Below are positions 22,747-42,377 of a stretch of 64,000 nucleotides of DNA, in pieces. The position numbers were made by a program, and so were the translations under genes. Each line of letters opens with the position of its first letter. The stretch's first letter is position 1. This stretch comes from Burkholderiaceae bacterium. GTDB lineage: Bacteria; Pseudomonadota; Gammaproteobacteria; Burkholderiales; Burkholderiaceae_C. The DNA lies in the NCBI GenBank assembly GCA_044222685.1, contig JBGAMU010000011.1, positions 4,582 through 68,581 of the forward strand. The letters are read 5' to 3'. The notes under the pieces are model-generated. The model saw only the letters and a list, made by a program, of their open reading frames with translations. It searched no databases and was not told where the DNA came from.

Positions 22747-22763
22747 TCCAATCCTCGGAGTCG

Positions 22764-25269: not shown

Positions 25270-25411
25270 GCCATTGCTTAAGGTCAAGTAAGGCTTGGCG
25301 TCATGTGACCGTTTGTTTGCGGGGTTTCGACCGGCGCGGTGGGGTCTCTGCGTACCCGCGTGGACTGAAGCTGACAAGAATGACAGCCGTCAATACAGCG
25401 CCCTCCCGATC

Positions 25412-26101
25412 ATGCGGTTGTTAGTGGTTGAAGACGATCCGCTGATGGGCTCGGCGGTCCAGAAGTCCCTGCTGCGCACGGGTCATGCCGTCGACTGGAT
25501 TCGCCGAGGCGGCGAGCTGATCCACGCGCTGCGCACCTTTGCCTACGACGCGGTGCTGGTCGACCTGGGTCTGCCAGACATCGGCGGCGAGTTGTTGGTG
25601 CGCCAGGCCAAGGCCCACAACGCACGCTTGCCAGTCGTGGTGATGACCGCCCGGGGTGCCGTCAGCGATCGGGTGACGCTACTCGACGTCGGGGCGGACG
25701 ACTATCTGGTCAAGCCGTTCGACTTGAACGAGCTCGGCGCCAGGCTGCGCGCCGTGATGCGGCGAACGCCATCTAACGGCGGCAGGGACTGCGAGGCCGA
25801 TCTCGAAGTGGGCATGTTGACGTTCAGCCCGTCGCGCCGCTCGGCCACTTGGCACGGGACGCCGGTGCGCCTGACCAACAAGGAATACAGGGTGCTGGAG
25901 ATGCTGGTGCGCCGCAGGCACCAGGTGCTCACGCGTGCGCAGCTCGAAAGTGCCATGTACGACGACGGCGATGACGTCGACAGCAACTCCGTCGAGGTCT
26001 ACATCCACTTTCTGCGCCGCAAGTTCAGCGCCTCGCTGATCCAGACCGTGCGCGGCGTGGGCTACCAGCTCGGCGACACGCGCGCGTTGGCATCTCTCTG
26101 A
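25412..26101 (+). CDS. OmpR/QseB-family response regulator (no adjacent kinase)
   Basis: MRLLVVEDDPLMG..., VLVDLGLPD, VVVMTARG, DDYLVKPF, and a winged-helix C-terminus ending RGVGYQL. Confidence 0.9.
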   Translation: MRLLVVEDDPLMGSAVQKSLLRTGHAVDWIRRGGELIHALRTFAYDAVLVDLGLPDIGGELLVRQAKAHNARLPVVVMTARGAVSDRVTLLDVGADDYLVKPFDLNELGARLRAVMRRTPSNGGRDCEADLEVGMLTFSPSRRSATWHGTPVRLTNKEYRVLEMLVRRRHQVLTRAQLESAMYDDGDDVDSNSVEVYIHFLRRKFSASLIQTVRGVGYQLGDTRALASL

Positions 26102-26596: not shown

Positions 26597-29500
26597 ATGA
26601 AGACCCAGAGCAGCGCCAAGCCGTTCCAGATGATCCGACTGTCAGCCGCGCTCGTGATGGCGCTGGCGCTGTGGCTGCTGCTGAGCGTCGCCGCGCAGGC
26701 CGCGCCGTTGAGGCTCAAGGTCATCGGCGTCGCCGCCAATGGCACGCAGACGGACATCACCGCTACCGCGGACTATCGCTGGACGGTAGAGCAGGACGCG
26801 ACCAAGGCATCGGTTCCCGGCAGGGCCGCCGACATCACCAACTACTCGTTCAGCTTCCATACCAGCTACATGCCGGTCGTGGCGGCCGGGCGGGCGGGTA
26901 CGGCGAGCAAGACAGCGCCTCACCAGGATCCTGACGTCCTGCGCCTGTACAGCCAGGCGCTGCCCGACCTCGATGCAAGCAAGCGCTACTACGTGTCGGT
27001 CGCGGCGGTGGGCTACCAGATGGGTGGTGCGCCGGTCGTGTTCAACGGCGGCACGCCGGAGGCCACCGTCTATCTCAATCAGTACGAGCTGCCGACGGCA
27101 CAGATCTCCGTCTTTGCGTTCAACGACAACAGCCCGATCAACGGTGCACCCGACCTGCCGCAGGAGCAGGGCCTTGCCGGCTTCACCGTGAAACTCATCG
27201 AGGCAGGCGGTACCTTCGGGCAATCGGGTGGCGAAGTCACGCAGGACGCGTTCGGCAATCCACTGGGTACGACCTATAACGCAGACGGCACCGTCAGAGT
27301 TCGCGGCAGCGGCATCATCCTCACCGACGCCAACGGCGTCGCGGTGATCAAGAACCTGTTCCCCGCCAAGTACACGATCTTCATCAACCCGCCGGTCGGT
27401 TCCGACTGGCACCAGACCTCGACGATCGAAGGCACCAAGGGCAGCGACGCCTGGGTCAAGAACAACGAACCCCAGTTCTTCCAGGAGTTCGGTCCGCCCG
27501 GCCACCACGTCTTCCTGGGCTTCACCCGGTCGGGGTTCATCGCGCGCAATGCGAACAACACGCCGGTGCTGAATGGCGCCAACGCGATCACGGGCCGGAT
27601 CGTCAATACGCACTACTCGCGTCCGCCCATCTATACGTTCCACAACGGCGCGCCGGTGAACGACTGCTGGGTCGGCCTGAACGAGACCAAGGCCAACGGC
27701 GGCCGCGCGCTTTACGCGGCGGCCTGCAACAAGGACAGCACGTTCCGCATCCCGAACGTGCCGGCAGGGACTTACGAGCTGGTGGTCTGGGACGAGCCGC
27801 TCGACATGATCATCGCGGCGACGACGATCACCGTTCCCGCCGGTGGTCTGACGATGGGTGACGTGCCCGTGGCCAGCTGGTTCGGGCGCTACCAGGGCCG
27901 CGTGTTCCAGGACATCGACGGCACCGGCTTGCCGTACTTCGTGGCGGACTTCGATCGCCCCTACGTGTACGTCAATCCGATCACCGGCGTGGAAGAGGAG
28001 CGCCAGCAATCGTTCAAGGCGGGTGACCTCAAGCCGCCGTTCGGCTCCGGCATCGCCAACAACCTTCGATTCCGCGACGGCAGCATCTACCAATCGACGA
28101 CGACCAAGGACGACGGCACGTTCGCCTTCACCGAGGTTTTCCCCTTCTTCAACTGGCTGGTCGCCGAGATCGACTACGCGCGCTTCAAGGCGACCAGCGC
28201 CAACGTGGTCGTCGACGGCGGCGGGCCGATCGATCCTGCGGCCAACCGGGCAAAGCTGTGGAACGCCGCGCCTGGCAGTTTCGGCAGCAACGACCCAGCG
28301 CTCAAGTACGACCCATGGACGCGGCTCAATCCGCAGTTGCAGGCGCCCGGCGAGTGCCCGGAGGGGAGGGCAGCCCCCTGCTACTTCCGCACGGAGAGCG
28401 TCGCAGGCGGTCCGGGCGCGATTCTGCTCGAAGGCATGCAGACCTTCCTCGGCCAGACCAACCACGTCGAGTGGGGCAAGGTCCCCTACAAGATCGACGA
28501 GAACGGCGGCATTGCCGGCATCGTCTACTACGGCATCACCCGGGCCGAGGACGACCCGCGATATGCCGCAGCGGAAAACTGGGAGCCTGGCATTCCGCGC
28601 GTCCAGGTCAACGTATTCCTCGACTGCGATGCCGATGGCGTGCCCGACAAGCCGAAGAACGACGGCACGGGCGAATGCGAGGCCGGTGGCCTGAGTACGC
28701 AGGGATACCAGTACGTCAAGCCCGACGTCGACAACTATCCGTTCTGCTGGCGCGATCCGGCTTCCTGCGGACTGACCGCGCCCAGCAAGGGCCCTGAAGA
28801 CGTGGTACGCGGTGGCAATGGCACTGCCTTCAGCTACGGCGACGTGCTGCGCTGGGGTGCGCCAGGCACCTACGCGACGCGGGCGGACGCCGAGGCTGCG
28901 CAACTTCATGTCGGCCTCGGCAAGACCGACTCCTGGGACGATTCGGTCCCGTTCGGTTGCCCCGATCCGACGCCGTACACGATTCCCAACTCGACAACGC
29001 AACTCGACTGCTTCGACGGCCTGCGCAACTTCAATCAGGTGCGCCCGTCGGTGTTCGACGGTGGTTTTGCGTTCGGCCGTGTGGCTGGCCAGGCCGAGTT
29101 GCCGATGATCATCGGCGCCAACGGTGACGGCAAATACATCCTCGAAGCCGTGGCTCCCCCGGGATATCTGCACCAGGGCAATGGCGACAAGAACGTCGTC
29201 TTCGGTGATTCGCTGAAGGCCTCGCCGGCCGCGCTGCCACACGAGTGCGTCGGCATGGAGCTCGACGTTCCGCAGTTCCTCACATTGTTCCCTGGCGAGC
29301 CTAACCCGAACTTCGGCAACCCACAGTACCCGAACAACAAGTGGCGCAAGTGCGACATGAAGTCCGTTCCGCTGACACCGGGGCTCAATGCGGCGCCCAA
29401 CTTCTTCATGTTCACCGAGGCGCCTGTTGCGGGCCACGGCGTGGGCTTCATCCTCGACGACACTGCAGCCGAGTTCAACCGCTTCGCGCCCACATTCGGC

Positions 29501-32500
29501 GAGAAGTTCTCGCCCCCGCACCTGCCGGTGTCGATCCAGGACTGGACCGGACGCGAAATCTCGCGTGTGTACTCCGACCAGTTCGGTTCATACAACTTCC
29601 TGGTCCCCTCGAGCTTCACGATCAATCCGCCGTATCCGTCGGGCGTGATGCCGAGCATGATGGTCGCGTGCATGAATCACGCGGGCCCGATCAAGATCGG
29701 CGTCAACGCCGACGGCACCGACAAGATGGGCATCGATCCATTCTTCAACCGGGCCTACTCGCAGTTCTGCTACACGTTCCAGTACCTGCCGGGCAAGACG
29801 ACGTACCTCGACACGCCGGTACTGCCGGTGGCGGCTTTCGCAGCCGTGGACAAGAACCCGCTGGATTGCGAGTGCGCCGACGGCACACCGGGGATCTACA
29901 GCGCCACCAATTCGAGCACGGACAACGGCCCGTGGGTGCCGGCCGCCGGCAGCCGGCAGTTGACCATCGTCTCGATGGGCAAGATGGATGTGATCAACCC
30001 GGCGTTCGACCCGGCCGATGCGAGCACCACGAAGACCATTCAACGCGACTACGGCTTTGGTGACGCGGGCGGTAGCGTCACGCTGGGCGGCGTCGCGCTG
30101 ACGATCAATTCCTGGGCTGACGGCATCATCACGGCCACCGTGCCCTCCGGCGCGAGCACCGGCCAATTGATGGTCAGGCGCGGCGACAACGGCAAGGAGT
30201 CGGTGGTCGGCCTGACGGTTCACGTCGGCGGGCCGGCGCCCAAGAAGGTGAATCCGAACGCGGTCGCGGGCAGCGGTGTCTACAAGACGATCCAGGCCGC
30301 GATCGACTCGGTGACCGACGCCAACATGTTGCTGAACGGCGGCGCGTTGATCACCGTGGCGCCGGGAACGTACAACGAGTACGTCATCATGGACAAGCGC
30401 GTTCGCCTGCAGGGCTGGGGCGCCGGGTCCGTCACCATCAACGCCGCCAAGGCGAGCGCCGCTGGCCTGGCCGACTGGCGCGCGAAGATCAACGCAAAGG
30501 CAAGCGGCCCGAACGCCACGTTCACCCTGCTGCCTGGTCAGACGCTGGGCATCGACCCGGCCAACAACGAGCCGCTGCTGTTCGGTGCCGAGGAGGGTCC
30601 TGGCATCCTCGTGGTTGGCAGGCAGAGTCCCCTCGGTGGAGTGGGACCGTTCAGCGAATGCCTGTTCGGCAACACCGCGGCACTGCACATCGACGGCTTG
30701 ACGATCACCGGCGCCGACAGTGGCGGCGGCATCCTCGCCAGTGGCTATGCCTGTGGCTTGACGGTGTCAAACAGCCGCATCCTCAGCAACTACGGCACTT
30801 ACGGCGGCGGTGTGCGCATCGGCCACACCACGCTGACCGCGGTGGTCAACGGCGCCGACGCCTACACCGACGGCGTCAATCGCAGCCCGACGCTGCATCA
30901 CAACTGGATCTCGCAGAACGGCGCCACCGAAGCGGGCGGCAGCGGCGGCATCACGCTGGGTACCGGCTCGAACAACTACTCGGTTTCCGACAACTACGTC
31001 TGCGGCAACTTCTCGATGGCCGACGGCGGCGGCCTGAGCCACCTCGGTCGGTCCGAGGGCTCGATCACGAGCAACGCCTCGCCGGCGAACACCATTGTTC
31101 GCAACAAGTTCATCTTCAACCAGACCTTCAATCAGGCTGCAGACCCGATGGGTGGCGGGCTGTCGATCGCCGGCCATGTCGTGCTCGCCGGCGGCGCGCC
31201 GGCAGGGACCGGTGACGTGGTGGTCAACGCCAACCTGATCCAGGGCAACCAGGCCGGCGCCGGCGCCGGTGGTGGCGTGAGCGTCGCCCGCACGTTGGCG
31301 GCCGACGACATCGACCTGACCAACAACATGATCGTCAACAACGTGGCGGCCTACACCGGCGGCGGCGTGGCGTTGACGGGCACTTCGACAGGTGTTCGGC
31401 TCGTCAACAACACCGTGGCCAGCAACGTCAGTACGGCAACCAACCGGCAGGCAGCCCATCCGCTGGGCTGGACGAATCCTTCGCTGCCGCAAGTCGCCGG
31501 ACTCGCGGTGCTGAGCGGGAGCAGCCCGACGCTGCTCAACAACATCCTGTGGGCCAACCGTTCATACGTCTACCTGATCAACGGAACCACGAGCGGGCTC
31601 TTCAACCCGGGGACGACGGACGTCAACGCGGAAGCGCCGGATGCGGTCTACGCGGATCTGGGTCGCATCGGTGCCGGCGACGCCCTGACGCCGCGGTACA
31701 GCGTATTGACTCTCGGCGGCGTGGGCAATGCGACCTATGACACCGGGCTGACCGGATGCTCGAACACGGCGCCGGCGGCTCTGCCCTTCTTCTGCAATCG
31801 GCTCGTCGCGGCAAACAGCTTGTCACTGTTCGAGTCGCCGAACGACTTCCTGTCGATCATCGATCCGACCCAGCCGGTGGTGCTGCCTGAAACGACCGTG
31901 CTGCTGCAATCGGCGCTGACATTCGACGAGACCGGCAACTTCATCAACGTGATCTTCAGTCCGCTCACGCTGTGGAACCCGGACGGATCGCTGCGCGCCG
32001 ACTACCACCTCTCCGGCACCTCGGTGGCCAGGGACAACGGCCGCGCGCAGAGCGCCGCAGCCGGCGTCAACGCGACGATCGGAGCCGGGTTCGTGCCTGC
32101 CGCGGACTTCGACGCCAACGCGCGCAGCGCGGCGGTAGACATCGGGGCCGACGAGTTCGTCGGCGCGGCGGCGGACCTGTCCATCACCCAGACCGACGAC
32201 GTGGCCAGCGTCAACGCGGGCGGAACGCTCACCTACACCATCACGGTTCGCAACTTCGGGCCTAACGCAGTGACCGGGGCCACGGTGACCGATATTTTCC
32301 CCGCGGCGCTCACGGTCAACAGCTGGACCTGCACGCCAGCCACGGGCTCGAGCTGCACGGTGGTCGGCAGCGGCAACAACAGGACGGGCACGGTGACGTT
32401 GACGAACGGCGGCAGCGCGACGTTCACGGCCAACGTGACCGTGGCGGCGACCGCAAGCGGACTGCTGACCAATACCGCCAGCGTCGCGGTGCCGGGCAGC

Positions 32501-33163
32501 CTGACCGATCCGCAGCCTAGCAACAACGTCGCCACGGATACCGACATGATCGTGATTCCGCGGCCGACGCTTGCTGTTACCGACAACTTCAATCGTGGCA
32601 ACGCAAACACGCTCGGGCCGAACTGGCAGCAGCTTGTTGCGCTCGGAAATGGCGGTATCCGGGTCAATGGCAATCAGGCGTTCTGCGTGAACTCAGGACT
32701 AGCGGCGGCTCTTTGCCTCGCTGGCGCAAATGGCTACTGGAACGGTCCGGGAGCGACATTCGGATCGAAGCAAGCCGCGTCATTCACCTTCGCCAACGCG
32801 ACGCTGAACAACGCGAGCCTGTACCTGAAGGCGACGGGGACATTGAACGCCGCTGGCGCCTACCCGAACGCGCTGCGCGTGCGCTACTCGACCGGCGGCG
32901 GCGGGCAAGTGATCGTCGAAGCAACGACGAACGGTGGCCTCTCCTTCACGACTGCGGGCAGCATGGCAGCTAGCTTCGTCAGTGGTGACACGCTGACTGC
33001 GCTGACCGACAGCTCCGGATTCACCTACGTCTGGAAGACCTCCGGCGCTACGACGACGCTGCTCGGTGGCGCGCCCACAGGGGCCACGGGAGCCGGGCGG
33101 ACCGGCATCTTCTTACCCCCCGGAGGCCGAGTCGACAACTTTTCGGGCGGCACCGTGCCGTGA
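26597..33163 (+). CDS. 2188-aa secreted multidomain protein (SdrD-B/Cna-B-like folds, IPT/TIG-like, right-handed parallel beta-helix repeats, DUF11-like repeat, C-terminal ~190-aa module)
   Basis: Signal peptide MKTQSSAKPFQMIRLSAALVMALALWLLLSVAAQA. Beta-helix repeats (ITGADSGGGI..., NNMIVNNVAAYTGGGVAL, NNTVASN). DUF11-like ADLSITQTDDV...TYTITVRNFGPNAVTGATVTD. Many paired Cys residues. Confidence 0.85.
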   Translation: MKTQSSAKPFQMIRLSAALVMALALWLLLSVAAQAAPLRLKVIGVAANGTQTDITATADYRWTVEQDATKASVPGRAADITNYSFSFHTSYMPVVAAGRAGTASKTAPHQDPDVLRLYSQALPDLDASKRYYVSVAAVGYQMGGAPVVFNGGTPEATVYLNQYELPTAQISVFAFNDNSPINGAPDLPQEQGLAGFTVKLIEAGGTFGQSGGEVTQDAFGNPLGTTYNADGTVRVRGSGIILTDANGVAVIKNLFPAKYTIFINPPVGSDWHQTSTIEGTKGSDAWVKNNEPQFFQEFGPPGHHVFLGFTRSGFIARNANNTPVLNGANAITGRIVNTHYSRPPIYTFHNGAPVNDCWVGLNETKANGGRALYAAACNKDSTFRIPNVPAGTYELVVWDEPLDMIIAATTITVPAGGLTMGDVPVASWFGRYQGRVFQDIDGTGLPYFVADFDRPYVYVNPITGVEEERQQSFKAGDLKPPFGSGIANNLRFRDGSIYQSTTTKDDGTFAFTEVFPFFNWLVAEIDYARFKATSANVVVDGGGPIDPAANRAKLWNAAPGSFGSNDPALKYDPWTRLNPQLQAPGECPEGRAAPCYFRTESVAGGPGAILLEGMQTFLGQTNHVEWGKVPYKIDENGGIAGIVYYGITRAEDDPRYAAAENWEPGIPRVQVNVFLDCDADGVPDKPKNDGTGECEAGGLSTQGYQYVKPDVDNYPFCWRDPASCGLTAPSKGPEDVVRGGNGTAFSYGDVLRWGAPGTYATRADAEAAQLHVGLGKTDSWDDSVPFGCPDPTPYTIPNSTTQLDCFDGLRNFNQVRPSVFDGGFAFGRVAGQAELPMIIGANGDGKYILEAVAPPGYLHQGNGDKNVVFGDSLKASPAALPHECVGMELDVPQFLTLFPGEPNPNFGNPQYPNNKWRKCDMKSVPLTPGLNAAPNFFMFTEAPVAGHGVGFILDDTAAEFNRFAPTFGEKFSPPHLPVSIQDWTGREISRVYSDQFGSYNFLVPSSFTINPPYPSGVMPSMMVACMNHAGPIKIGVNADGTDKMGIDPFFNRAYSQFCYTFQYLPGKTTYLDTPVLPVAAFAAVDKNPLDCECADGTPGIYSATNSSTDNGPWVPAAGSRQLTIVSMGKMDVINPAFDPADASTTKTIQRDYGFGDAGGSVTLGGVALTINSWADGIITATVPSGASTGQLMVRRGDNGKESVVGLTVHVGGPAPKKVNPNAVAGSGVYKTIQAAIDSVTDANMLLNGGALITVAPGTYNEYVIMDKRVRLQGWGAGSVTINAAKASAAGLADWRAKINAKASGPNATFTLLPGQTLGIDPANNEPLLFGAEEGPGILVVGRQSPLGGVGPFSECLFGNTAALHIDGLTITGADSGGGILASGYACGLTVSNSRILSNYGTYGGGVRIGHTTLTAVVNGADAYTDGVNRSPTLHHNWISQNGATEAGGSGGITLGTGSNNYSVSDNYVCGNFSMADGGGLSHLGRSEGSITSNASPANTIVRNKFIFNQTFNQAADPMGGGLSIAGHVVLAGGAPAGTGDVVVNANLIQGNQAGAGAGGGVSVARTLAADDIDLTNNMIVNNVAAYTGGGVALTGTSTGVRLVNNTVASNVSTATNRQAAHPLGWTNPSLPQVAGLAVLSGSSPTLLNNILWANRSYVYLINGTTSGLFNPGTTDVNAEAPDAVYADLGRIGAGDALTPRYSVLTLGGVGNATYDTGLTGCSNTAPAALPFFCNRLVAANSLSLFESPNDFLSIIDPTQPVVLPETTVLLQSALTFDETGNFINVIFSPLTLWNPDGSLRADYHLSGTSVARDNGRAQSAAAGVNATIGAGFVPAADFDANARSAAVDIGADEFVGAAADLSITQTDDVASVNAGGTLTYTITVRNFGPNAVTGATVTDIFPAALTVNSWTCTPATGSSCTVVGSGNNRTGTVTLTNGGSATFTANVTVAATASGLLTNTASVAVPGSLTDPQPSNNVATDTDMIVIPRPTLAVTDNFNRGNANTLGPNWQQLVALGNGGIRVNGNQAFCVNSGLAAALCLAGANGYWNGPGATFGSKQAASFTFANATLNNASLYLKATGTLNAAGAYPNALRVRYSTGGGGQVIVEATTNGGLSFTTAGSMAASFVSGDTLTALTDSSGFTYVWKTSGATTTLLGGAPTGATGAGRTGIFLPPGGRVDNFSGGTVP

Positions 33164-33260: not shown

Positions 33261-34520
33261 ATGATTGCCAAGACTTTTCGCAAGGCCCTGCTGCCGATGG
33301 CCGTGGTGGCAGCGCTTGGGGCCGCTTCGTCGGCAGGCGCGGCAGTGTTCGTGCAGTGCGGGCCCGGAAACAGTGGCGTCGACCCGGCGACGGGAAAGAT
33401 TCGCCCGGCGTTCGACGCTGATGCGGGCCCGGCCGGCGTGGCGTGCAAGCACCTCAGCGCAGGCGACGGTTTCATCAGCATGGCCGACGGCCGGAGCCTC
33501 TACACCTTCGGCTTCGCCGACGTGACCAGCAAGACCTCGGCCGAGATCGCGCTCGACGCTCTGACGGCGAACTTTGCCGCGCCCACCATCAAGCTCAAGC
33601 AGAACCAGGACTTCTACCTGACGCTGACCAACGTGGCGATGACGATGCGGCCCGATCTGTTCGACCCGCACACCGTGCACTTCCACGGCTTCCCGCAGGC
33701 GGCACCGGTGTTCGATGGCATGCCTGAGGGCTCCTTCGGCGTGAACATGGGTTCGTCGGTCACCTACTACTACAAGCTCAACGACCCGGGCACCTACATG
33801 TACCACTGCCACCAGGAGGCCACCGAGCACATGCAGATGGGCATGCTCGGCAACCTGTATGTCGAGCCCGCGCAGGACGGCACGTCGTTCACCTACCCAC
33901 CCGTCGGTGGACGGCCCTACACGAAGTTCGTCTACAACGACGGCGACGGCTCCACCGGCTACGACATCGCCGTGCCGCTGCAGCTCTCGTCGATGGACCA
34001 CAACTTCCATGACGCCAGCCTGAGCATCAATCCGCTGCCCTTCAAGAACATGAAGGACACCTACGCGATGATCAACGGGCGCGGATACCCGGACACCGTG
34101 AGGCCCACTCCGCTCGATCCGCCCGCCGAGAAGGTCGACTACCTCACCGGCGTCGTCGATCCGGTGCCGTCTTCGCAGCCGCTCAGCGCCCTGATCACCG
34201 CCAGCAAGGGCCAGCGCGTGCTGCTGCGCCTGTCGAATCTGAGCGTCACCAACTACTACACCGTCACGGCGCAGGGCCTGCCGATGAAGGTGGTGGGCGC
34301 TGGTGCACGCCAGTTGCGCGGGCCCGACGGCAAGAACCTGTACTACGACACCACCTCGGTGACGCTCGGCGGCGGTGAGTCGGCGGAGGTGCTGATCGAC
34401 ACCAGTCAGGTGGAGCCGGGAACCTACTTCCTCTACACCACCAACCTGAACTACCTCAGCAACAACGATCAAGACAGCGGCGGAATGATGACGGAGATCG
34501 TCATCGCGGCGGCGCCGTGA
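33261..34520 (+). CDS. multicopper-oxidase family protein 1 (type-1 Cu site plus half of a trinuclear-cluster ligand set in its N-terminal domain)
   Basis: AGGAG RBS upstream and a Sec-type signal. HTVHFHG (HxxHxH) and YHCHQEATEHMQMGM (HCH..H....M). The second cupredoxin-like half has no ligands. Confidence 0.85.
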   Translation: MIAKTFRKALLPMAVVAALGAASSAGAAVFVQCGPGNSGVDPATGKIRPAFDADAGPAGVACKHLSAGDGFISMADGRSLYTFGFADVTSKTSAEIALDALTANFAAPTIKLKQNQDFYLTLTNVAMTMRPDLFDPHTVHFHGFPQAAPVFDGMPEGSFGVNMGSSVTYYYKLNDPGTYMYHCHQEATEHMQMGMLGNLYVEPAQDGTSFTYPPVGGRPYTKFVYNDGDGSTGYDIAVPLQLSSMDHNFHDASLSINPLPFKNMKDTYAMINGRGYPDTVRPTPLDPPAEKVDYLTGVVDPVPSSQPLSALITASKGQRVLLRLSNLSVTNYYTVTAQGLPMKVVGAGARQLRGPDGKNLYYDTTSVTLGGGESAEVLIDTSQVEPGTYFLYTTNLNYLSNNDQDSGGMMTEIVIAAAP

Positions 34521-34561
34521 TCGCAAACGAGACCCACCCGGCAGTTGTCAGGAGAGGCGCA

Positions 34562-35986
34562 ATGAAGAGCATGTCGAAATTCAGGTCGTTGCCAGGGGTC
34601 CTCCGGACCGGTCTTGCGGCCCTGCTGCTGGGCATGGTCGGCCAGGCGCAGGCCTACATCAACGGCTGGGAGGGATCGTGCGATGCCGATGCGACCGGGA
34701 AGGCATGCCCGCCCGCGACCGTTCGCACGTTCACGCTGACGGCCAAGCACGACTTCATCAGCACGTCCGACGGTGGCAGCCACTACGCATGGGGCTACTC
34801 CTTCGGTACCGATCTGCCGATGCAGTACCCCGGGCCGACGCTGATCGCCAGGCAGGGCGACACGGTCAAGATCGTGCTCAACAACACTCTGCCCGCGCCG
34901 GTGTCGATCATCTTCCCTGGCGTGCAGGGTGTCACCGCGACCGGTGGCAACCCCGGGCTGCTGACACGCGAGGCGCGCGCGGTGCCGATGTCCGAGAACG
35001 CGATCGTGGCCGGTCCGACCTACACCTTCGTTGCCGACAAGCCAGGAACCTACCTGTACCACAGCGGCACGAATCCCGACCTGCAGATCGAGATGGGTCT
35101 GGTCGGGGCGCTCATCGTGCGGCCGAACGGTTACGACATGGGCACACCGGCATCCCACGCCGGCCGCAAGGCCTATGAGCAACCCGGCACCCACTACGAC
35201 CGCGAGAACCTGTTCCTGCTGAGCGAAATCGACCCGGCCATCCACTGGCAGGTGTACACGCAGGTGTTCGGTAATCAGCCGATCGCGGTCGACACGACGG
35301 CGATCAGGCCCAGCATCTGGTTCATCAACGGCCGCAACGCGCCCGACACGCTGCTGGACGACCACGTCGACTGGCTGCCGACGCAACCGTACAACGCGCT
35401 GCCGCGCATGCATCCCGGCGAACGACTGCTGATGCGCGTGGTGAGCGCGGGGCGTGACCTGCATCCCTTCCACCACCATGGCAATCACGCCACGCCGATC
35501 GCGCGCGACGCTCGTGTGCTCGAGAGCGCTCCAGGCGCCGGTCCGGACCTGACTTCGCCGGACTTCACCGTCCGCGCGATTCCGGGACAGACCATGGACC
35601 TCATCTTCGAGTGGACAGGCAAGGGGATCGGCTGGGATGTCTACGGCACCGCGGCCGTCAATCCGCATAGCTGCACTCCCGATGGCAGCGGGTTCGATCC
35701 CGTCAGCAGGGAATGGTGTGCCGACCACTACAAACCCATCCCGGTGATCATCCCCGGTGCGCTCGATCTCTCCTTCGGCGAGAGCTGGAGTGGCAGTCCG
35801 TTTCTGGGCCTGGTCGGTTCGTTGCCGCAAGGACATCCGGGGCTCAACACCACTGGCGGCTACTTCCACATGTGGCACTCCCACAATGAAAAAGAGATCA
35901 CCACCGACGACATCTTCCCGGGCGGGATGATGACCATGCTCATCGTCGAGCCCTGGTCAGTGCTTCTGTTCGAAGACAAGCCGTAA
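34562..35986 (+). CDS. multicopper-oxidase family protein 2 (no type-1 Cys; HxxHxH + HSH in C-terminal domain)
   Basis: Signal peptide MKSMSKFRSLPGVLRTGLAALLLGMVGQAQA. HPFHHHGNH and HMWHSHNEKE. The N-terminal domain is ligand-less (SIIFPG, YLYHSGT). Confidence 0.85.
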   Translation: MKSMSKFRSLPGVLRTGLAALLLGMVGQAQAYINGWEGSCDADATGKACPPATVRTFTLTAKHDFISTSDGGSHYAWGYSFGTDLPMQYPGPTLIARQGDTVKIVLNNTLPAPVSIIFPGVQGVTATGGNPGLLTREARAVPMSENAIVAGPTYTFVADKPGTYLYHSGTNPDLQIEMGLVGALIVRPNGYDMGTPASHAGRKAYEQPGTHYDRENLFLLSEIDPAIHWQVYTQVFGNQPIAVDTTAIRPSIWFINGRNAPDTLLDDHVDWLPTQPYNALPRMHPGERLLMRVVSAGRDLHPFHHHGNHATPIARDARVLESAPGAGPDLTSPDFTVRAIPGQTMDLIFEWTGKGIGWDVYGTAAVNPHSCTPDGSGFDPVSREWCADHYKPIPVIIPGALDLSFGESWSGSPFLGLVGSLPQGHPGLNTTGGYFHMWHSHNEKEITTDDIFPGGMMTMLIVEPWSVLLFEDKP

Positions 35987-36009: not shown

Positions 36010-38001
36010 ATGCGCACCAGAAAACTCACACTCAAGTTCGGCGTCGCGGCACTGAGTTGTACCTCGTTGTCGCTGGTCGCAGGCCAGGCACTCGCGGCTG
36101 AGTACTGGCTGAAGGTCGCAGCGACGACGGTGCAGATGCCCGATCCCGCCGGCACTCCCGCGACGATCGGTGTACCGATGTGGGGCTACGCCAGCTGCAC
36201 GGCCAGCTTCGCCACCTGCAGCAGTCCCACGGTGCCAGGTCCGGCGCTGACAGTGCCGCCTGGCGACACGACTCTGACAGTGCATCTGCTGAACGGTCTG
36301 TCGGTGCCGACGTCTCTCGTGATCAACGGCCTGGTCAAGCCGATGACACCGGTGTGGGACACGGGTGCGTCCGGCAGTCGCCCCAACGCGACCGCGCGCG
36401 TGCGCTCGTTCGACACCGAAGCTCAAGCAAACAACGGCACGCAGGCCGACTACGTCTGGGGCAGCGCGGCCAACCCGCTCAAGCCCGGCACCTATCTGTA
36501 CCAGAGCGGCACGCAGCCCCAGGTGCAGGTGCAGATGGGCTTGTACGGCGCGGTGACCAAGAACGTGACGGACGCAGTCGCCGCCACGGCGACCGACCCA
36601 GCGATACCGGGCCAGGCCTACACGGGCGCCGGCTATGCCTTCGACAATGAAACCACGCTCCTGTACAGCGAGATCGACACCGACCTGCATACCGCTGTCG
36701 CAACTGGGACCTATGGAACGACCGGTCCGACCAGCACGATCAACTACGCACCGAAGTACTTCCTGATCAACGGCAAACCCTACCAGTTCGGAGCGTCGGT
36801 TATCGAACCCAGCGGCAGCCCCGGCACCACGTTGCTGCGCCTGCTCAACGCCGGGCTAACCACGCACGTGCCGATGATCCAGGGCAAGCACTGGGACGTG
36901 ATCGCCGAGGACGGCAGACCCTACGCCTATCGCCGGACCCAGTACACCGCGCTGCTGCCCGCGGCGAAGACGGTCGACGTACTGCTGACGCCCGAGATCG
37001 GCGCAACCTACCCGATCCTGGATCGGCGTCTCAGCCTGTCGAACAGCGGGGCGTCGGACGGCGGCATGTTGGCGTTCCTGCGCTTCGCGGCGCTCGGCTC
37101 GATGGGGCTCGGCGGCGGGGCAGGCGGCAATGCAGCGCCCGTGGCTGAAGCCGACCCCTACGAGTCCGTTGTGGGTGTCACGCTCAACGTCGCGGCGCCC
37201 GGCGTGTTGAGCAACGACACCGATGCCGATAGCCCGATCATCAAGGCCGTCGCCGCCAGCGGTGCGACCGCGGGCGGCGGAACGTACGCGTTGAACGCCA
37301 ATGGCTCGTTCACCTATTCGCCGCCAGCTGGGAACCTGTCGACCGATAGCTTCACCTATCAGGCCACCGACGGCAGGGCGTTGAGCGTCGCGGCGACCGT
37401 GACCATCACCCTGACCACGCCGCCGGCGCCGAGCCTGCCCACGCTCGACGCTTTCGCGACACCTGGCAATAGTCTCGGTGGCAACTGGAGCCAGCAGGTG
37501 GAGACCACGGCCTCGGTGCCGGACGTCGGAGTCAGCGCGGCAGGCGTCGCGGCCGCCAACACGATCGCCCTGGGTGGTTTGGCGGTCTGGAACGCGGCGC
37601 CATTCGGAGCGACTCAGGGCGCCAGTTTCACTGGCGGAGGGCCGCCTGCGTCCACGGCCTACCTTGTTCTCAAGGCCAGCGGAGGTAACTCCATCGCAGC
37701 GCCGGCCAACTACGTTCGCGTGGGTTGCGAAAGCGGCCAGATCGTCGTTTCGACAATGATGGGCGGCAGCAACGTCTCCGTGTTCACAAAGCAGGCGGCG
37801 TTTGGCAGCTGCAGCGGTAGCGGGTCAATGAGCGCCGTGGTCGACGCCAAAGGCTTGGTGACCGTGTTCCAGGGCGCGACCTTCGCCGGCGGCGTACAGC
37901 TGCCCGACGTCCCCGTGTGGAAGGGCGGCGGCCGCATCGGCATCCAGCTGACGACGGTGGGAGCCACGGCCGATGACTTCGCCGGTGGTACGTTGCCTTG
38001 A
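36010..38001 (+). CDS. copper-ligand-less multicopper-oxidase paralogue fused to cadherin/Big-like segment and the shared C-terminal module
   Basis: YLYQSGTQPQVQVQMGLYG aligns with the MCO1/2 motifs but lacks His and Cys. APGVLSNDTDADSPI...FTYSPPAG...FTYQATDG is cadherin-like. The C-terminus ends DDFAGGTLP. Confidence 0.75.
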   Translation: MRTRKLTLKFGVAALSCTSLSLVAGQALAAEYWLKVAATTVQMPDPAGTPATIGVPMWGYASCTASFATCSSPTVPGPALTVPPGDTTLTVHLLNGLSVPTSLVINGLVKPMTPVWDTGASGSRPNATARVRSFDTEAQANNGTQADYVWGSAANPLKPGTYLYQSGTQPQVQVQMGLYGAVTKNVTDAVAATATDPAIPGQAYTGAGYAFDNETTLLYSEIDTDLHTAVATGTYGTTGPTSTINYAPKYFLINGKPYQFGASVIEPSGSPGTTLLRLLNAGLTTHVPMIQGKHWDVIAEDGRPYAYRRTQYTALLPAAKTVDVLLTPEIGATYPILDRRLSLSNSGASDGGMLAFLRFAALGSMGLGGGAGGNAAPVAEADPYESVVGVTLNVAAPGVLSNDTDADSPIIKAVAASGATAGGGTYALNANGSFTYSPPAGNLSTDSFTYQATDGRALSVAATVTITLTTPPAPSLPTLDAFATPGNSLGGNWSQQVETTASVPDVGVSAAGVAAANTIALGGLAVWNAAPFGATQGASFTGGGPPASTAYLVLKASGGNSIAAPANYVRVGCESGQIVVSTMMGGSNVSVFTKQAAFGSCSGSGSMSAVVDAKGLVTVFQGATFAGGVQLPDVPVWKGGGRIGIQLTTVGATADDFAGGTLP

Positions 38002-38060: not shown

Positions 38061-38528
38061 ATGACATCGCGGTTTGGTGTGGCACTCGTCGCGCTGTCGT
38101 CGGCGATCTTCGTGACGCAGCTAGTCGGTTGCGCCACGGCTCCCGACTCCGCAGCGCTGCTGGCAGCGATTCAGGCCGAAAGGTCAGTGGTCGAGACGAA
38201 TTACGGTATCAGGGTCGAAGGGCTACGCCTCACCGCGGCCGGGTCGATGCTCGACTTTCGCTATCGGGTCCTCGATGCGCAGAAGGCTGCTCCATTCCTT
38301 AACGGCAAGATCCAGGCGTATCTGCTCGACGACGTGCGCAATGCGAAGCTCGGCGTGCCCAACACGCCCAAGCTCGGGCGCATCCGCCAGACCGCACGGA
38401 ACAACGTGATCCACGTCGACCGCAGCTACTTCATCATGTTCGGCAATCCGGGCAAGGCTCTGCAAAGCGGCGACAAGGTGGCCTTGCTGCTGGGCGAGGT
38501 CAAGATCACCGATCTGACGGTGGAGTAG
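38061..38528 (+). CDS. small lipoprotein of unknown function
   Basis: MTSRFGVALVALSSAIFVTQLVGC lipobox; 155 aa; no motif I recognise. Confidence 0.6.
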   Translation: MTSRFGVALVALSSAIFVTQLVGCATAPDSAALLAAIQAERSVVETNYGIRVEGLRLTAAGSMLDFRYRVLDAQKAAPFLNGKIQAYLLDDVRNAKLGVPNTPKLGRIRQTARNNVIHVDRSYFIMFGNPGKALQSGDKVALLLGEVKITDLTVE

Positions 38529-38592
38529 CGCCGCTGGGCCGAGCATGACGTCACGCCGCCGCAGACGTGAGCTCGGGCAAGATGTGGTCAAC

Positions 38593-40065
38593 ATGTCGCG
38601 AATCGGCTTTCGAGACTTTGCAGTGCAGTTCCTGGCCATCTTCGGGTGGGCCGCGGCGACATCGGCTGCATCGGCGGCCGTCATCGCTCCCGAGCTCGAA
38701 CGCGTGATGGCGGCGCGCGGCACTCATGCCGATACGCCGGTGATCCTGCGATTTGCCGAGCCGCTGGACCTGCAGCCGCTGGCCGTGACCGATCGTCTCG
38801 CCCGCGACAACAGGTTGCTGTTGGCCCTCAAGGCGCGCGCAGCGCGCAATCGCGCCGTCGTCGAGCCGTTTCTTGCGATGCAGGGTGCCGTCGGTGTCAA
38901 GGATCTGTGGATCATCAACGGTCTGGCGGCAACACTGCCTGCGGTGGCGGTGAAGCAATTGGCCGGCCAGGCCGGCGTCGAGCGCATCGACGTTGACTCG
39001 TTCGTCCAGGGCGGACGTTCACAACACGCTTCCTCGCCGCGTACGCCAGCGCCGCAGACCAAAACGCAAACGGCAGTGGCACCCCCTGCGATCGCGGTCG
39101 ACCCAGTCGCGTTGTCGCGTACGACTGTGAGCTGGAACGTCGCCGCGATCCGCGCGCCGCAGCTGTGGGCGCTCGGCCATACCGGCACAGGAGTGGTGGT
39201 CGCAGCCATGGATACCGGCGTGGACCTTGCGCATCCGGACCTGCAGCGCCGTTGGCGCGGGGGGACGAACAGCTGGTTCGATCCACACGGTGAGCAAGCG
39301 ACACCCTACGACGGGTCCGGTCACGGCACGCAGGCGATGGGAGTCATCGTCGGCGGATCGTCGATAGGTGTCGCTCCCGACGCGCGCTGGGTCGCTGTGA
39401 AGCTCTACAACGCCGACGGGCGCGCGCGCATGAGCGACATTCACCTGGCCTTTCAATGGCTGATGGATCCCGACGGCGATCCGGCAACGCTCGATGCACC
39501 CGATATCGTCAACGCCTCATGGGCGCTGACCGGTCGGGGTGCGGGCGCCTGCATCCTCGAGTTCAGCGACGATGTCCGCGCCCTGCGCAGCGCCGGCATT
39601 GCAGTCGTTTTTGCCGCGGGCAACGATGGCCCGGCGCCAGGCACCAGCAACAGCCCGGGCAACAACCCGGGTGTTCTGTCGGTCGGTGCCGTGGATCGCA
39701 GGCTGCAAGTGGGGCGGCAAGTGAGCCGCGGTCCATCGGCCTGCGAAGGTACGGTGTTCCCTCGTCTGGTGGCGCCCGGAATGAACGTTCGCACGACCGA
39801 TGTCTCGCACGGCGGGCTGCCGTCGTACGCCACCGTGTCCGGCAGTTCGCTGGCCGCGCCGCATGTGGCGGGTGTGATGGCGTTGCTGGCCGGTGCATTT
39901 CCCAGGGCCTCGGTGACCGAACTGGAGGGCGCGCTTGTCCAGGGCGCGCTCGACCTGGGCGACGATGGCGCCGACAACACGTACGGCAGCGGCCTGGCCG
40001 ATGCCTTGGCGGCATTCCACATCCTGCAGAAGGCCAGCGGATCGGTCGTGACAGGCCATCGCTGA
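38593..40065 (+). CDS. subtilisin-like S8 serine protease with I9-type propeptide
   Basis: Catalytic triad contexts VVVAAMDTGVD, GSGHGTQAMG and SGSSLAAPHVAG, with an N-terminal signal peptide and propeptide. Confidence 0.9.
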   Translation: MSRIGFRDFAVQFLAIFGWAAATSAASAAVIAPELERVMAARGTHADTPVILRFAEPLDLQPLAVTDRLARDNRLLLALKARAARNRAVVEPFLAMQGAVGVKDLWIINGLAATLPAVAVKQLAGQAGVERIDVDSFVQGGRSQHASSPRTPAPQTKTQTAVAPPAIAVDPVALSRTTVSWNVAAIRAPQLWALGHTGTGVVVAAMDTGVDLAHPDLQRRWRGGTNSWFDPHGEQATPYDGSGHGTQAMGVIVGGSSIGVAPDARWVAVKLYNADGRARMSDIHLAFQWLMDPDGDPATLDAPDIVNASWALTGRGAGACILEFSDDVRALRSAGIAVVFAAGNDGPAPGTSNSPGNNPGVLSVGAVDRRLQVGRQVSRGPSACEGTVFPRLVAPGMNVRTTDVSHGGLPSYATVSGSSLAAPHVAGVMALLAGAFPRASVTELEGALVQGALDLGDDGADNTYGSGLADALAAFHILQKASGSVVTGHR

Positions 40066-40089: not shown

Positions 40090-40713
40090 ATGAACGTACG
40101 TGCTGAATCCATGGGCCTTGCAGTGGCGCTCGCACTCGCGACAGGTGGCGCGCTGCTCAGCCCGTCCGTCGGTTCGGCGCACGAGGGCAAGCAACATGCA
40201 ACGCGGTGGCCCGGCTCCAACGACTACCTGCGCTCGGTACGTTCGTACGCGGTGCCGGATGTCGTGCTGACCGACGGCGACGCGCGCCAGGTGCGCCTGC
40301 GCGAACTGTTGGCGAGCAACGACCCGGTGATGATGAACTTCATCTTCACCACCTGCGGCACGATCTGCCCAGTGATGGTCAAGGTCTTCGCCGACGTGCC
40401 TGATCGGCTCGGTGCTCAGGCAAAGAACCTGCGCTTGATCTCGATCTCGATCGATCCCGACAACGACACACCGGCCCAGCTCAAGGCCTACGCCAGGAGC
40501 TTCGGCGCTGGTGAGCGGTGGAAGTTCCTGACCGGCAGCGCGCAGGACATCAAGAGCCTGCAACTCGCCTTCGATGGCTACCGTGGCGACAAGATGAACC
40601 ACGAGCCGCTCACGCTGATGCGTCATGCCGTGGGCAAACCCTGGATCCGTATCGACGGCTTCGCGAACCCCGACGAGCTGGTTCGCGAGTACCGCAAAGG
40701 GGGGCCGCAGTGA
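40090..40713 (+). CDS. SCO1/SenC-family copper chaperone
   Basis: Thioredoxin-like fold with FIFTTCGTICPVM (CxxxC) and a downstream His (KMNHEP). Confidence 0.85.
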   Translation: MNVRAESMGLAVALALATGGALLSPSVGSAHEGKQHATRWPGSNDYLRSVRSYAVPDVVLTDGDARQVRLRELLASNDPVMMNFIFTTCGTICPVMVKVFADVPDRLGAQAKNLRLISISIDPDNDTPAQLKAYARSFGAGERWKFLTGSAQDIKSLQLAFDGYRGDKMNHEPLTLMRHAVGKPWIRIDGFANPDELVREYRKGGPQ

Positions 40714-42377
40714 CGCTGCTCGGCGCGTCCGGTGTTTCCACCCTGCGGCGAGCGGCGTGGCTGCCTTCGGGGCTCGCCGTGCTAATGCATGTCTTCTTGG
40801 CGGTTGGTGCCTGGGCGCAGGCCGCTGCGCCCGAGGCAAGTGGCGATGCCGCGCAACTGGCGCTCGGCCAGCGCATCTATCGGGAGGGCATCGGTGCGTC
40901 TGGCCAAGCGCTGAGGGCGGTTGGCGCGGCGCAGGCGGCACTCGGTGGCAAGGACGCGGCCTGCGCCACCTGCCACCGCAGGAGCGGGTTTGGCTCCAGT
41001 GAGGGCAGGTTCGTCATCCGGCCGATCATCGCACCGGCATTGCTGCAGGAGCAGAGCGTCGCGCTGCACGCACCGCGCGTCAAGGCGCGAGTGGGGACGA
41101 GTCAACGCCCGGCCTACAACGAGGCCTTGCTGGCGCGCGCCATTCGAGGCGGCGTCGACGCCGCTGGCAAGCCGCTCGATGCCGTGATGCCGCGCTACGC
41201 GCTGAGCGACGACGAGATGAAAGCACTGTCGGCGTATCTGTTCTCGCTCGGCGCCAAACCATCGCCAGGCGTGGACGAGCACGACATCCACTTCGCCACC
41301 GTGATCCAACCCGGCGTCGCGCCGGAGCGGCGCCGTGCGATGCTCGACGTGATGCAGGCCTTCGTCAAGGACAAGGGTGCCAACGTGCGTTCGGACGAGC
41401 AACGCCGCGAGGCCGGCAACATGCGCATGTACCGCTCCTACCGCAAGTGGGTGCTGCATGTGTGGGAGTTGAATGGGCCGAGCGAAACCTGGTCAGCGCA
41501 ACTCGAGGCGTTGTACAGCCAGCAGCCAGTGTTCGCCTTCATTGGTGGCCTGGGCAACGCGAGCTGGGGCCCGATCCATGCCTTCAGCGAGCGCCTCGAG
41601 ATCCCGAGCGTGTTGCCGCAGGTGGATCTGCCGTTGCTGACCAGCATCAACCAATACACCTTCTACTTCTCGCGCGGCATGGTGCTCGAGGCGGAGGTGC
41701 TGGCCAAGTTCGTGCGTGAGCAGGGGGACGCGGGCCCGATCGTCCAGGTCTATCGCCGCGAAGAGGCGGGCGCGGCAGCGGCTGCGGCGTTCCGTGCCGC
41801 GCTGACGACTGGCGCGACGGTGGAGGACCGCGTGCTCGAAGGGCCGGCGACCGAGGCGTTCTGGCAACAGCTGTACGCCGGCAAGCCCGCCGCGGTGGTG
41901 CTGTGGCTCGGCGCATCGGATCTAGTGGGGGCACCTGCGCCGGGCGGCACTGCGCCCAGCGTGTACCTGTCCTCCAATCTGCTGCCGGGTCGGCTTCCCG
42001 ATGCGCTCGCCAAGGCCAATGCGCGACTCGTGTACCCGTCCGACCTTCCGCCCAAGCGCGAGGCGCGTCTGCTGCGCCACAAGCTGTGGCTGCACAACAA
42101 GGGCATTGCGGTCACCGACGAGGTGGTTCAGGTGAACACCCAGTTCACGATGACGGTGGTCAGCGATGTGGTGGGGCACATCATGGACAGCTTCTCGCGC
42201 GACTACTTCGTCGAGCGCATCGAGCATGTGGTCGGCCAGACACCGATGGCTTCGGTGTACCAGAACGTCAGCCTCGGTCCCGGCCAGCGTTTCGCGGCCA
42301 AGGGCAGCTCGGTGGTGCAGGTGCTCGACGCCGACAAGAAGCAGCTGAAGGCGCTGTCGGGCTGGATCGTGCCCTGA
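40710..42377 (+). CDS. monohaem cytochrome c domain fused to a type-1 periplasmic binding-protein-like domain
   Basis: The GTG start overlaps the SCO1 stop (GTGA). Signal/TM segment, then CATCH with a downstream Met (AVMPRY). The ~380 C-terminal residues look like a Leu/Ile/Val-binding-protein fold. Confidence 0.75.
   Translation: MTLLGASGVSTLRRAAWLPSGLAVLMHVFLAVGAWAQAAAPEASGDAAQLALGQRIYREGIGASGQALRAVGAAQAALGGKDAACATCHRRSGFGSSEGRFVIRPIIAPALLQEQSVALHAPRVKARVGTSQRPAYNEALLARAIRGGVDAAGKPLDAVMPRYALSDDEMKALSAYLFSLGAKPSPGVDEHDIHFATVIQPGVAPERRRAMLDVMQAFVKDKGANVRSDEQRREAGNMRMYRSYRKWVLHVWELNGPSETWSAQLEALYSQQPVFAFIGGLGNASWGPIHAFSERLEIPSVLPQVDLPLLTSINQYTFYFSRGMVLEAEVLAKFVREQGDAGPIVQVYRREEAGAAAAAAFRAALTTGATVEDRVLEGPATEAFWQQLYAGKPAAVVLWLGASDLVGAPAPGGTAPSVYLSSNLLPGRLPDALAKANARLVYPSDLPPKREARLLRHKLWLHNKGIAVTDEVVQVNTQFTMTVVSDVVGHIMDSFSRDYFVERIEHVVGQTPMASVYQNVSLGPGQRFAAKGSSVVQVLDADKKQLKALSGWIVP

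Follow-up and report, generated by a model that had tools for sequence, protein, structure and literature searches.

A predicted heteromeric multicopper oxidase with one trinuclear copper cluster divided between two paralogous proteins

Multicopper oxidases (MCOs) are described as monomers, with three or six cupredoxin domains, or as homotrimers of two-domain chains. In ceruloplasmin, which has six domains, the trinuclear cluster lies between domains 1 and 6. In the two-domain MCOs, the coppers of the trinuclear site are coordinated by residues of two protomers, and an enzyme is assigned to type C if its type-1 site is in the N-terminal domain; the six-domain MCOs are single polypeptides (PMC13151041). 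Here we describe three adjacent genes, which we will call MCO1, MCO2, and MCO3, in a stretch of 64,000 nucleotides ("the window") from a Burkholderiaceae bacterium (GenBank assembly GCA_044222685.1, contig JBGAMU010000011.1, positions 4,582 to 68,581 of the forward strand). We propose that MCO1 and MCO2 share one trinuclear cluster as a hetero-oligomer, and that a 1:1:1 ring with MCO3 is its most likely form. We think that this proposal is probably correct.

The closest described systems are the type-C two-domain MCOs, such as the Nitrosomonas europaea oxidase (PDB 3G5W) and the metagenomic laccase mgLAC (2ZWN). As in these enzymes, there are two cupredoxin domains per chain, the type-1 site is N-terminal, domain 1 supplies HxxHxH and HCHx5Hx4-5M, domain 2 supplies HxxHxH and HxH, and the cluster would lie between two protomers. 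But the type-C enzymes are homotrimers with both half-sites on every chain and three clusters, whereas here the half-sites are on different gene products. Also, the third paralog is ligand-free, MCO2 and MCO3 lack a type-1 site, and there would be at most one cluster per three subunits. The genes and their ligand motifs are (in coordinates of the window):

33261..34520, + strand: MCO1, two cupredoxin domains, with a type-1 site and half of the predicted trinuclear cluster in domain 1; ATG start, 419 amino acids, signal peptide
33669..33686, + strand: MCO1 motif HTVHFH (H137/H140/H142); H137 is the type-1 His, and H140 and H142 are cluster His
33804..33845, + strand: MCO1 motif HCHQEATEHMQMGM (H182/C183/H184/H190/M195); type-1 Cys, His, and Met, and two cluster His
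34562..35986, + strand: MCO2, two cupredoxin domains, without a type-1 site, with the other half of the predicted cluster in domain 2; 474 amino acids, signal peptide
35462..35479, + strand: MCO2 motif HPFHHH (H301/H304/H305/H306); H304 and H306 are predicted cluster His
35873..35884, + strand: MCO2 motif WHSH (H439/S440/H441); two cluster His around a Ser at the type-1 Cys position
36010..38001, + strand: MCO3, ligand-free paralog with two cupredoxin domains; 663 amino acids, signal peptide

The three genes are on the same strand with short gaps (41 nucleotides between MCO1 and MCO2). The start of MCO2 is most likely the ATG at 34562, which has an AGGAGA Shine-Dalgarno sequence 7 nucleotides 5' of it; a longer open reading frame (ORF) from a GTG at 34517 overlaps the stop of MCO1. 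In MCO3, the pair of cupredoxin domains (residues ~30-360) is followed by a Big_9/cadherin-like domain and then by a C-terminal domain that is discussed below.

The original prediction, which was made from the DNA alone, had placed the four motifs at these nucleotides, and the translations match exactly. It is also right that domain 1 of MCO1 has a full type-1 site (H137, C183, H190, M195) and four cluster histidines (H140, H142, H182, H184), and that domain 2 of MCO1 and domain 1 of MCO2 are free of ligands: a motif scan of those domains finds no further H.H, HCH, or H..H.H. The four cluster histidines that it assigned to the last domain of MCO2, without a cysteine, are there as well, although this "last domain" is simply the second of two. 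The conserved cluster histidines of MCO2 are H304, H306, H439, and H441; H305 is variable, and H301 occupies the position of the type-1 His. The HSH of MCO2 corresponds in position to HCH, with a Ser instead of the Cys, and this Ser is invariant among close orthologs. MCO3 has no H.H, HCH, or H..H.H motif and just 4 histidines in total. A chance origin of the motifs is not an issue, because the exact motifs are at these sites and all three proteins have Pfam Cu-oxidase domains (E = 8e-15 for MCO1, which matches Cu-oxidase_3/_2 as well as Cu-oxidase; E = 1e-11 for MCO2; and a weak E = 6e-4 for MCO3). In NCBIfam, the three paralogs have only sub-threshold matches to named oxidases, so they lie outside of every curated equivalog family. 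(Some MCO2 homologs carry an automatic "manganese oxidase" label from JGI; this is an annotation, not a test, and we rejected it as functional evidence.)

Comparing alignments of the orthologs with hhalign indicates that MCO1, MCO2, and MCO3 are colinear two-domain paralogs (probabilities of 99.1-100%; MCO3 has 99.1% against MCO1 and 100% against MCO2). In domain 1, PHTVHFHG of MCO1 aligns with APVSIIFPG of MCO2 and VPTSLVING of MCO3, and YHCHQEATEHMQMGM of MCO1 aligns with YHSGTNPDLQIEMGL of MCO2 and YQSGTQPQVQVQMGL of MCO3. In domain 2, HPFHHHG of MCO2 aligns with YYTVTAQG of MCO1 and HVPMIQG of MCO3, and WHSH...GGMMTML of MCO2 aligns with YTTN...GGMMTEI of MCO1 and LDRR...GGMLAFL of MCO3. 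Only MCO1 has the type-1 site (His, Cys, His, Met) in its N-terminal domain; at the position of HCH, MCO2 has HSG and MCO3 has QSG. No chain has both half-sites: in all orthologs examined, MCO1 has the domain-1 half, MCO2 has the domain-2 half, and MCO3 has neither. Ligands are retained in two of the six cupredoxin domains, and the ligand count permits exactly one trinuclear cluster per set of MCO1, MCO2, and MCO3; the six-domain ring itself is what we infer.

All three paralogs also have an acidic-His motif that opens domain 2, whose histidine is 97-100% conserved. This motif could be structural, or it could be an extra metal or substrate site. Its positions are:

~33981-34010: MCO1 residues 241-250, SMDxxFH
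~35204-35245: MCO2 residues 215-228, SEIDPAIH
~36670-36690: MCO3 residues 221-227, SEIDTDLH

Solved structures point to the same division of labor. When a profile of MCO1 was compared to all PDB chains, the best match was 3G5W (E = 4.9e-13), followed by 2ZWN and Nmar_1354 (9CCK); ceruloplasmin (5N0K) was a weak match. The alignment to 3G5W spans domain 1 and includes both ligand motifs: HTVHFH aligns with PHTIHWHG, and HCHQEATEHMQMGM aligns with YHCHVNVNEHVTMRGM. With 2ZWN, too, the match lies in domain 1 and takes in both motifs. The full-length profile of MCO2 matched PDB sequences in domain 1 only, but a profile of domain 2 by itself matched domain 2 of 2ZWN best (E = 5e-4), with domain 2 of 3G5W in second place (E = 7e-3). 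In its second domain, 3G5W has the motifs HAIHTHG and MIHDH...GGIMTTI. The first motif of MCO2 (consensus HPFHTHG) aligns with that HAIHTHG and with HAMHSHG of 2ZWN, and the second, MWHSH, aligns with MIHDH in 3G5W. Domain 1 of MCO1 matches domain 1 of type C and domain 2 of MCO2 matches domain 2 of type C, and therefore the two proteins together have one full set of type-C interface ligands.

The predicted fold of MCO2 is of the same class. An AlphaFold2 model built from 80 diverse sequences has a pLDDT of 92.5 and a pTM of 0.89. Foldseek's top matches for this model were 2ZWN, 3G5W, 3GDC, 7RAB, and 9CCK, followed by copper nitrite reductases, and comparison to full-length 2ZWN and 3G5W gave target-normalised TM scores of 0.74 and 0.72. 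The nearest solved structures are all two-domain cupredoxin enzymes that are built on trimers. Two cupredoxin domains per chain are indicated for MCO2 by this model, for MCO1 by Pfam and by 3G5W, and for MCO3 by its colinearity in hhalign. Because of insertions, MCO1 and MCO2 are ~100-150 amino acids longer than enzymes of the 3G5W/2ZWN type.

The divided ligands are conserved across distant bacteria. In a scan with one genome per species, at least 512 genomes encode a relative of MCO1. We retrieved 80 loci, which were chosen by two MCO1 peptide patterns that contain H137 and H190. All eight ligand positions of MCO1 are invariant (84/84 sequences). MCO2 played no role in selecting the loci, and its H301, H304, H306, H439, S440, and H441 do not vary in any of the complete sequences from them, while the neighbouring H305 and H436 do. 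A search with MCO2 against 1.8 billion representatives at 50% identity gave 217 relatives with E ≤ 1e-30. In an alignment of 80 diverse MCO2 sequences, down to 34% identity, H304 and H439 are each conserved in 80/80, H441 in 79/80, and H306 in 78/80. At position 440, these sequences have Ser, Asn, Val, or Pro, and none has Cys. H301 becomes Tyr in distant members, which is expected if no type-1 copper binds there.

The length of MCO2 varies. In many Burkholderiales, MCO2 has 590-740 amino acids, as compared to 474 here, and a few of these orthologs have a PF22544 domain. One homolog of 899 amino acids (P0264) has two large inserts, apparently in loops of the oxidase fold.

The original prediction would have us ask if the homologues occur alone in other genomes, and they do not: MCO2 adjoins MCO1 in every evaluable genome and in distant lineages as well. 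The automatic count was 75 of 76 evaluable loci with MCO2 immediately 3' of MCO1, but the lone miss (L071) is a gene that overlaps by a few bases, so the corrected count is 76/76. In metagenomic contigs, the gene order is unchanged.

Besides being adjacent, these genes are sometimes fused, to each other or to the gene upstream of MCO1, which encodes a large protein that we will call GIANT:

26597..33163, + strand: GIANT secreted protein; ~2188 amino acids, taking Met75 of the ORF at 26375 as the first residue

Natural fusions of MCO2 to MCO3 are found in P0297, P0309, and P0364. We fetched the loci of P0309 and P0297, and in both of them a gene of the MCO1 type, with HxxHxH and HCH...H...M, is directly 5' of the fusion. 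In-frame fusions of GIANT to MCO1 are found in Gallionella (L037), Hydrogenedentes (L062), and Steroidobacteraceae (L076); the junction is at the N-terminus of mature MCO1, without an intervening signal peptide. In Vicinamibacterales (L060), MCO3 and GIANT are a single ORF with MCO3 first (L060:12492-19691). Furthermore, the C-terminal domains of GIANT and MCO3 are homologous (~200 amino acids, 32% identity, E = 3e-9; window 32501-33160 and 37390-37998, + strand), and both proteins terminate in D(N/D)F(S/A)GGT(V/L)P. This common domain is possibly an anchoring or sorting module. The rest of GIANT has SdrD-B/fn3_3-like and DUF11 domains (from Pfam). The fusions and the common C-terminal domain together point to one physical assembly of GIANT, MCO1, MCO2, and MCO3. 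Among the loci, we saw no single-chain form with six domains; some lineages have two chains, MCO1 and the fusion of MCO2 to MCO3.

In two Desulfatibacillum metagenome-assembled genomes (L052 and L053), the ORF of GIANT reads into MCO1 without a stop, and the signal peptide of MCO1 is kept. The GIANT part terminates in a Gly-rich stretch and then a hydrophobic segment, which looks like a C-terminal sorting signal. These run-on ORFs are probably not true fusions.

Loss of the ligands is also informative. Among the 80 diverse MCO2 sequences, a cluster histidine is missing from just two: P0295, which has HPFHFDG (H306 is replaced by Asp), and P0273. At the locus of P0295 (L087:4684-7455), the adjacent MCO1 has YLYSGFAEAAEQMEMGM instead of YMYHCHQEATEHMQMGM, so that H182, C183, H184, and H190 are lost. 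Joint loss in MCO1 and MCO2 is what a shared site predicts. (MCO3 at this locus has 1490 amino acids, with weak or faint NHL matches and a HYR domain, and there is no GIANT upstream.)

The original prediction, that a trinuclear cluster forms at the interface of MCO1 and MCO2, thus gains support from the homology to type-C domains, the fold, the synteny, the conservation, and the joint loss of ligands, all of which are indirect tests. Because the ligands of one cluster are divided between two gene products, the oxidase is most likely functional only when the different subunits are combined in one complex. Starting from the observed motifs, paralogy, fold class, conservation, synteny, and fusions, we propose the following mechanism. 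By homology with trimeric two-domain MCOs, MCO1, MCO2, and MCO3 would most likely come together 1:1:1 in a ring with six cupredoxin domains, in which one of the three subunit interfaces, between domain 1 of MCO1 and domain 2 of MCO2, would retain a metal site. The type-1 copper would be bound by H137, C183, H190, and M195 of MCO1, and the trinuclear cluster by H140, H142, H182, and H184 of MCO1 together with H304, H306, H439, and H441 of MCO2. Electrons would enter at the type-1 copper of MCO1 and reach the trinuclear cluster by way of the Cys183-His182/His184 link; at the cluster, O2 would be reduced to water. MCO3 would close the ring, and its Ig-like and C-terminal domains would tether the ring to the adhesin-like GIANT. 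Sec-type signal peptides should export the subunits, and therefore metallation and assembly would take place after export. Copper insertion may be aided by a SCO1/SenC-type chaperone (or by CopC/CopD in other genomes), and a subtilase perhaps processes the subunits. The electron donor is possibly Fe(II) or a mineral, or else the cytochrome c that is encoded in the cluster. In this scheme, the geometry of the interface, the stoichiometry, the identity of the electron donor, and what the accessory genes do are inferred.

Should the ring model hold, the complex would be like the six-domain MCOs (ceruloplasmin, hephaestin, and MnxG) in having six cupredoxin domains and a single interface cluster. 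It would differ from them in being formed by three chains (or two chains if MCO2 and MCO3 are fused), and in having one type-1 site, which is on an N-terminal-type domain and not on the last domain. The Mnx complex (MnxG with MnxE and MnxF) is a multi-subunit secreted MCO complex that is encoded by one operon. But one Mnx chain is a complete catalytic MCO and the small accessory subunits are not MCOs, whereas here the subunits are three MCO paralogs and the catalytic cluster is divided. Searching the literature on heterotrimeric or heteromeric MCOs, we found no divided cluster; we found only Nmar_1354, whose heterotrimer combines chains that have a dangling domain with chains that lack it, and the heterodimers of fungal laccases, in which the small subunit is not an MCO.

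Several observations weigh against our proposal. First, the convergence of the eight histidines, the order of the ring, and the 1:1:1 stoichiometry are predicted from homology alone. Second, MCO2 has an insertion of ~80 residues in domain 2 (roughly 352-433), which might have a bearing on the interface. Third, the joint decay is from a single lineage (L087); the contig with P0273 ends short of its partner. Fourth, the conservation of H137 and H190 is partly due to selection of the loci, because both lie in the search patterns, although the other six positions do not. Finally, many of the hosts are described as anaerobes (Desulfobulbaceae and Syntrophobacterales), and their need for an O2-reducing oxidase is not obvious.

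We also considered that MCO1 and MCO2 might share the cluster without a 1:1:1 ring, as a heterodimer or as a larger alternating oligomer, with MCO3 as a scaffold or adhesin module. The ligand logic demands the pairing of MCO1 and MCO2 only. Of the three paralogs, MCO3 has the lowest conservation (32 of 663 columns are invariant), and it has the extra Ig-like and tether domains. And there is a dodecameric two-domain MCO (7RAB), so quaternary structure varies within the class. However, MCO3 retains both cupredoxin domains, colinear with those of MCO1 and MCO2; it is downstream of MCO2 in all 72 evaluable genomes and is covalently joined to MCO2 in some lineages; and the nearest solved relatives are all built on trimers. 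We consider this arrangement to be unlikely.

Or, these might be independent proteins that form no trinuclear cluster, with MCO1 as a type-1 electron carrier with leftover histidines, and MCO2 and MCO3 as non-catalytic proteins with structural or metal-binding roles. No single chain has a complete site, a degenerate version exists (L087), and proteins with the MCO fold but without ligands are known, such as FtsP (which is itself a weak NCBIfam match to the paralogs). This seems inconsistent with the conservation: leftover residues would not remain invariant, yet all eight cluster histidines are kept across phyla, down to 34% identity, while H305 and H436 drift. The strict adjacency of the genes and the copper chaperones that are encoded in the cluster also argue against independent proteins, which we think are quite improbable.

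A third alternative is that the interface holds a mononuclear type-2 copper, so that the complex would be a reductase similar to the nitrite reductase NirK instead of an oxidase. NirK is a trimer of chains with two cupredoxin domains, with type-1 copper in domain 1 and the catalytic copper at the subunit interface, and these features are also expected here. Both MCO1 and MCO2 have NirK structures among their matches by fold and by sequence, and many of the hosts are anaerobes or denitrifiers. But the type-2 site of NirK has three histidines, of which domain 1 contributes two and domain 2 of the neighbouring subunit contributes the third, whereas these proteins have the MCO pattern of eight, with HxxHxH and HCH opposite HxH and HxH. 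Also, the best matches by sequence and by fold are the oxidases 3G5W and 2ZWN, not NirK. Given the paired HxH motifs in both half-sites, and a score of ~30 bits against TIGR02376 (whose cut-off is 296), we rejected a NirK-type site as very improbable. As for MCO1 and MCO2 being one gene that a frameshift or a faulty assembly has divided, they are adjacent on the same strand and just 41 nucleotides apart, but each gene has a separate ribosome-binding site and encodes a separate signal peptide, each product is a complete two-domain paralog, and the genes are separate in 76/76 independent genomes, so such an artefact is almost certainly not the explanation.

The proposed heteromeric oxidase is probably part of a conserved secreted system of eight genes. 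Downstream of MCO3 are:

38061..38528, + strand: SMALL, a conserved predicted lipoprotein; ~155 amino acids, taking Met22 of the ORF at 37998 as the first residue; the sequence shows an LVGC lipobox
38545..40065, + strand: subtilase (Peptidase_S8, Pfam E = 6e-42), a candidate maturation protease
40090..40713, + strand: SCO1/SenC-type copper chaperone with a CGTIC motif (Pfam E = 2e-21)
40518..42377 (ORF), + strand: monoheme cytochrome c domain protein with one CATCH and a large C-terminal domain (Pfam Cytochrom_C, E = 1.6e-5)

SMALL has no match in Pfam or NCBIfam. The true start of the cytochrome c domain protein is probably near 40785.

All 80 loci that we examined carry the conserved cluster. 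By automatic count, GIANT is upstream of MCO1 in 69 of 71 evaluable genomes; in the exceptions, GIANT is in frameshifted fragments (L013) or is the downstream fusion to MCO3 (L060). SMALL is downstream in 59/60 evaluable genomes, the subtilase is in the cluster at most of the 80 loci, and the cytochrome c protein is at many of the proteobacterial loci. In distant lineages, whose MCO2 is 35-40% identical, both the order GIANT-MCO1-MCO2-MCO3-SMALL and the division of the ligands are retained. In five of these (L084, L085, L088, L089, and L090), a CopC/CopD fusion protein replaces the genes for SCO1/SenC and the cytochrome, and no subtilase was called. With CopC/CopD in place of SCO1/SenC, the copper-supply module is therefore interchangeable. 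(In L090, the next gene after CopC/CopD is ApbE.)

The carriers are from Pseudomonadota, Nitrospirota, Acidobacteriota, Planctomycetota, Myxococcota, Desulfobacterota, and Bacteroidota. Within Pseudomonadota they include Burkholderiales, Gallionellaceae, Thiobacillus, Sulfuricella, Methylocaldum, Thioploca, and Amphritea; the others include Nitrospirota, Acidobacteriota, Phycisphaerae, Hydrogenedentes, Myxococcota, Desulfobulbaceae and other Desulfobacterota, and Bacteroidales. Iron and sulfur oxidisers are among the carriers.

A cluster that fits this arrangement has been described in Sideroxydans lithotrophicus ES-1. Slit_1812-1818 encode three cupredoxin proteins, of which two have "canonical" MCO motifs and a larger third does not, as well as SCO1/SenC, a cytochrome, and small hypothetical proteins (bioRxiv 10.1101/2024.09.20.614158). 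The proteins are predicted to be extracellular, and they are co-expressed, with higher levels on magnetite than on Fe(II)-citrate; that study did not assign them a role and does not mention a division of ligands between them (bioRxiv 10.1101/2024.09.20.614158). We judged the likeness from the published description. Four loci from Gallionellaceae (L025, L029, L037, and L038) are in our retrieved set. Since the description of Slit_1812-1818, which are raised on magnetite, matches the cluster, the cluster is a candidate part of extracellular mineral oxidation.

The window has another gene that might be relevant to electron transfer. About 3.5 kb upstream of the oxidase cluster, at 20830-23031 (- strand), is a multiheme cytochrome of 733 amino acids with c7/c3/MtrC/MtrF-like domains; it is possibly an extracellular electron-transfer partner of the oxidase. 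Directly 5' of GIANT are a patatin-like phospholipase (ORF 24199-25377, - strand) and an OmpR-type response regulator (25295-26101, + strand). Two-component genes flank the cluster in L001 and L003 as well.

The chemistry that we propose, and the placement of the cluster between subunits, are already known from two-domain MCOs. What would be new is that paralogs in an obligate heteromer divide one active site between them, with one site per six domains. By analogy, the resulting topology would resemble that of the six-domain oxidases of the ceruloplasmin type, but formed from separate chains. We can also imagine, more tentatively and with somewhat less than even confidence, that this is a widespread and unrecognised obligate heterotrimeric MCO, or an "unfused ceruloplasmin" of three subfunctionalised paralogs with six domains, one type-1 copper, and one trinuclear cluster between subunits, which is mounted on GIANT as the O2-reducing end of an extracellular machine for oxidising metals or minerals, and which is a living intermediate toward the six-domain MCOs.

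If our proposal is correct, then a catalytic cluster between two gene products, along with an inactive third paralog, would be a new quaternary solution for this family, of clear interest to those who study copper enzymes and metal oxidation. Each gene by itself resembles an oxidase and yet should be inactive, so expressing a lone subunit in a heterologous host would probably fail. The three paralogs would be a natural case of duplication and subfunctionalisation of a symmetric homo-oligomer. On the more tentative reading above, they would stand midway on the path that has been proposed from homotrimers of two-domain chains to MCOs with six domains, with the fusions of MCO2 to MCO3 as a further step. 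A model of long standing for how ceruloplasmin and other six-domain oxidases arose would become testable.

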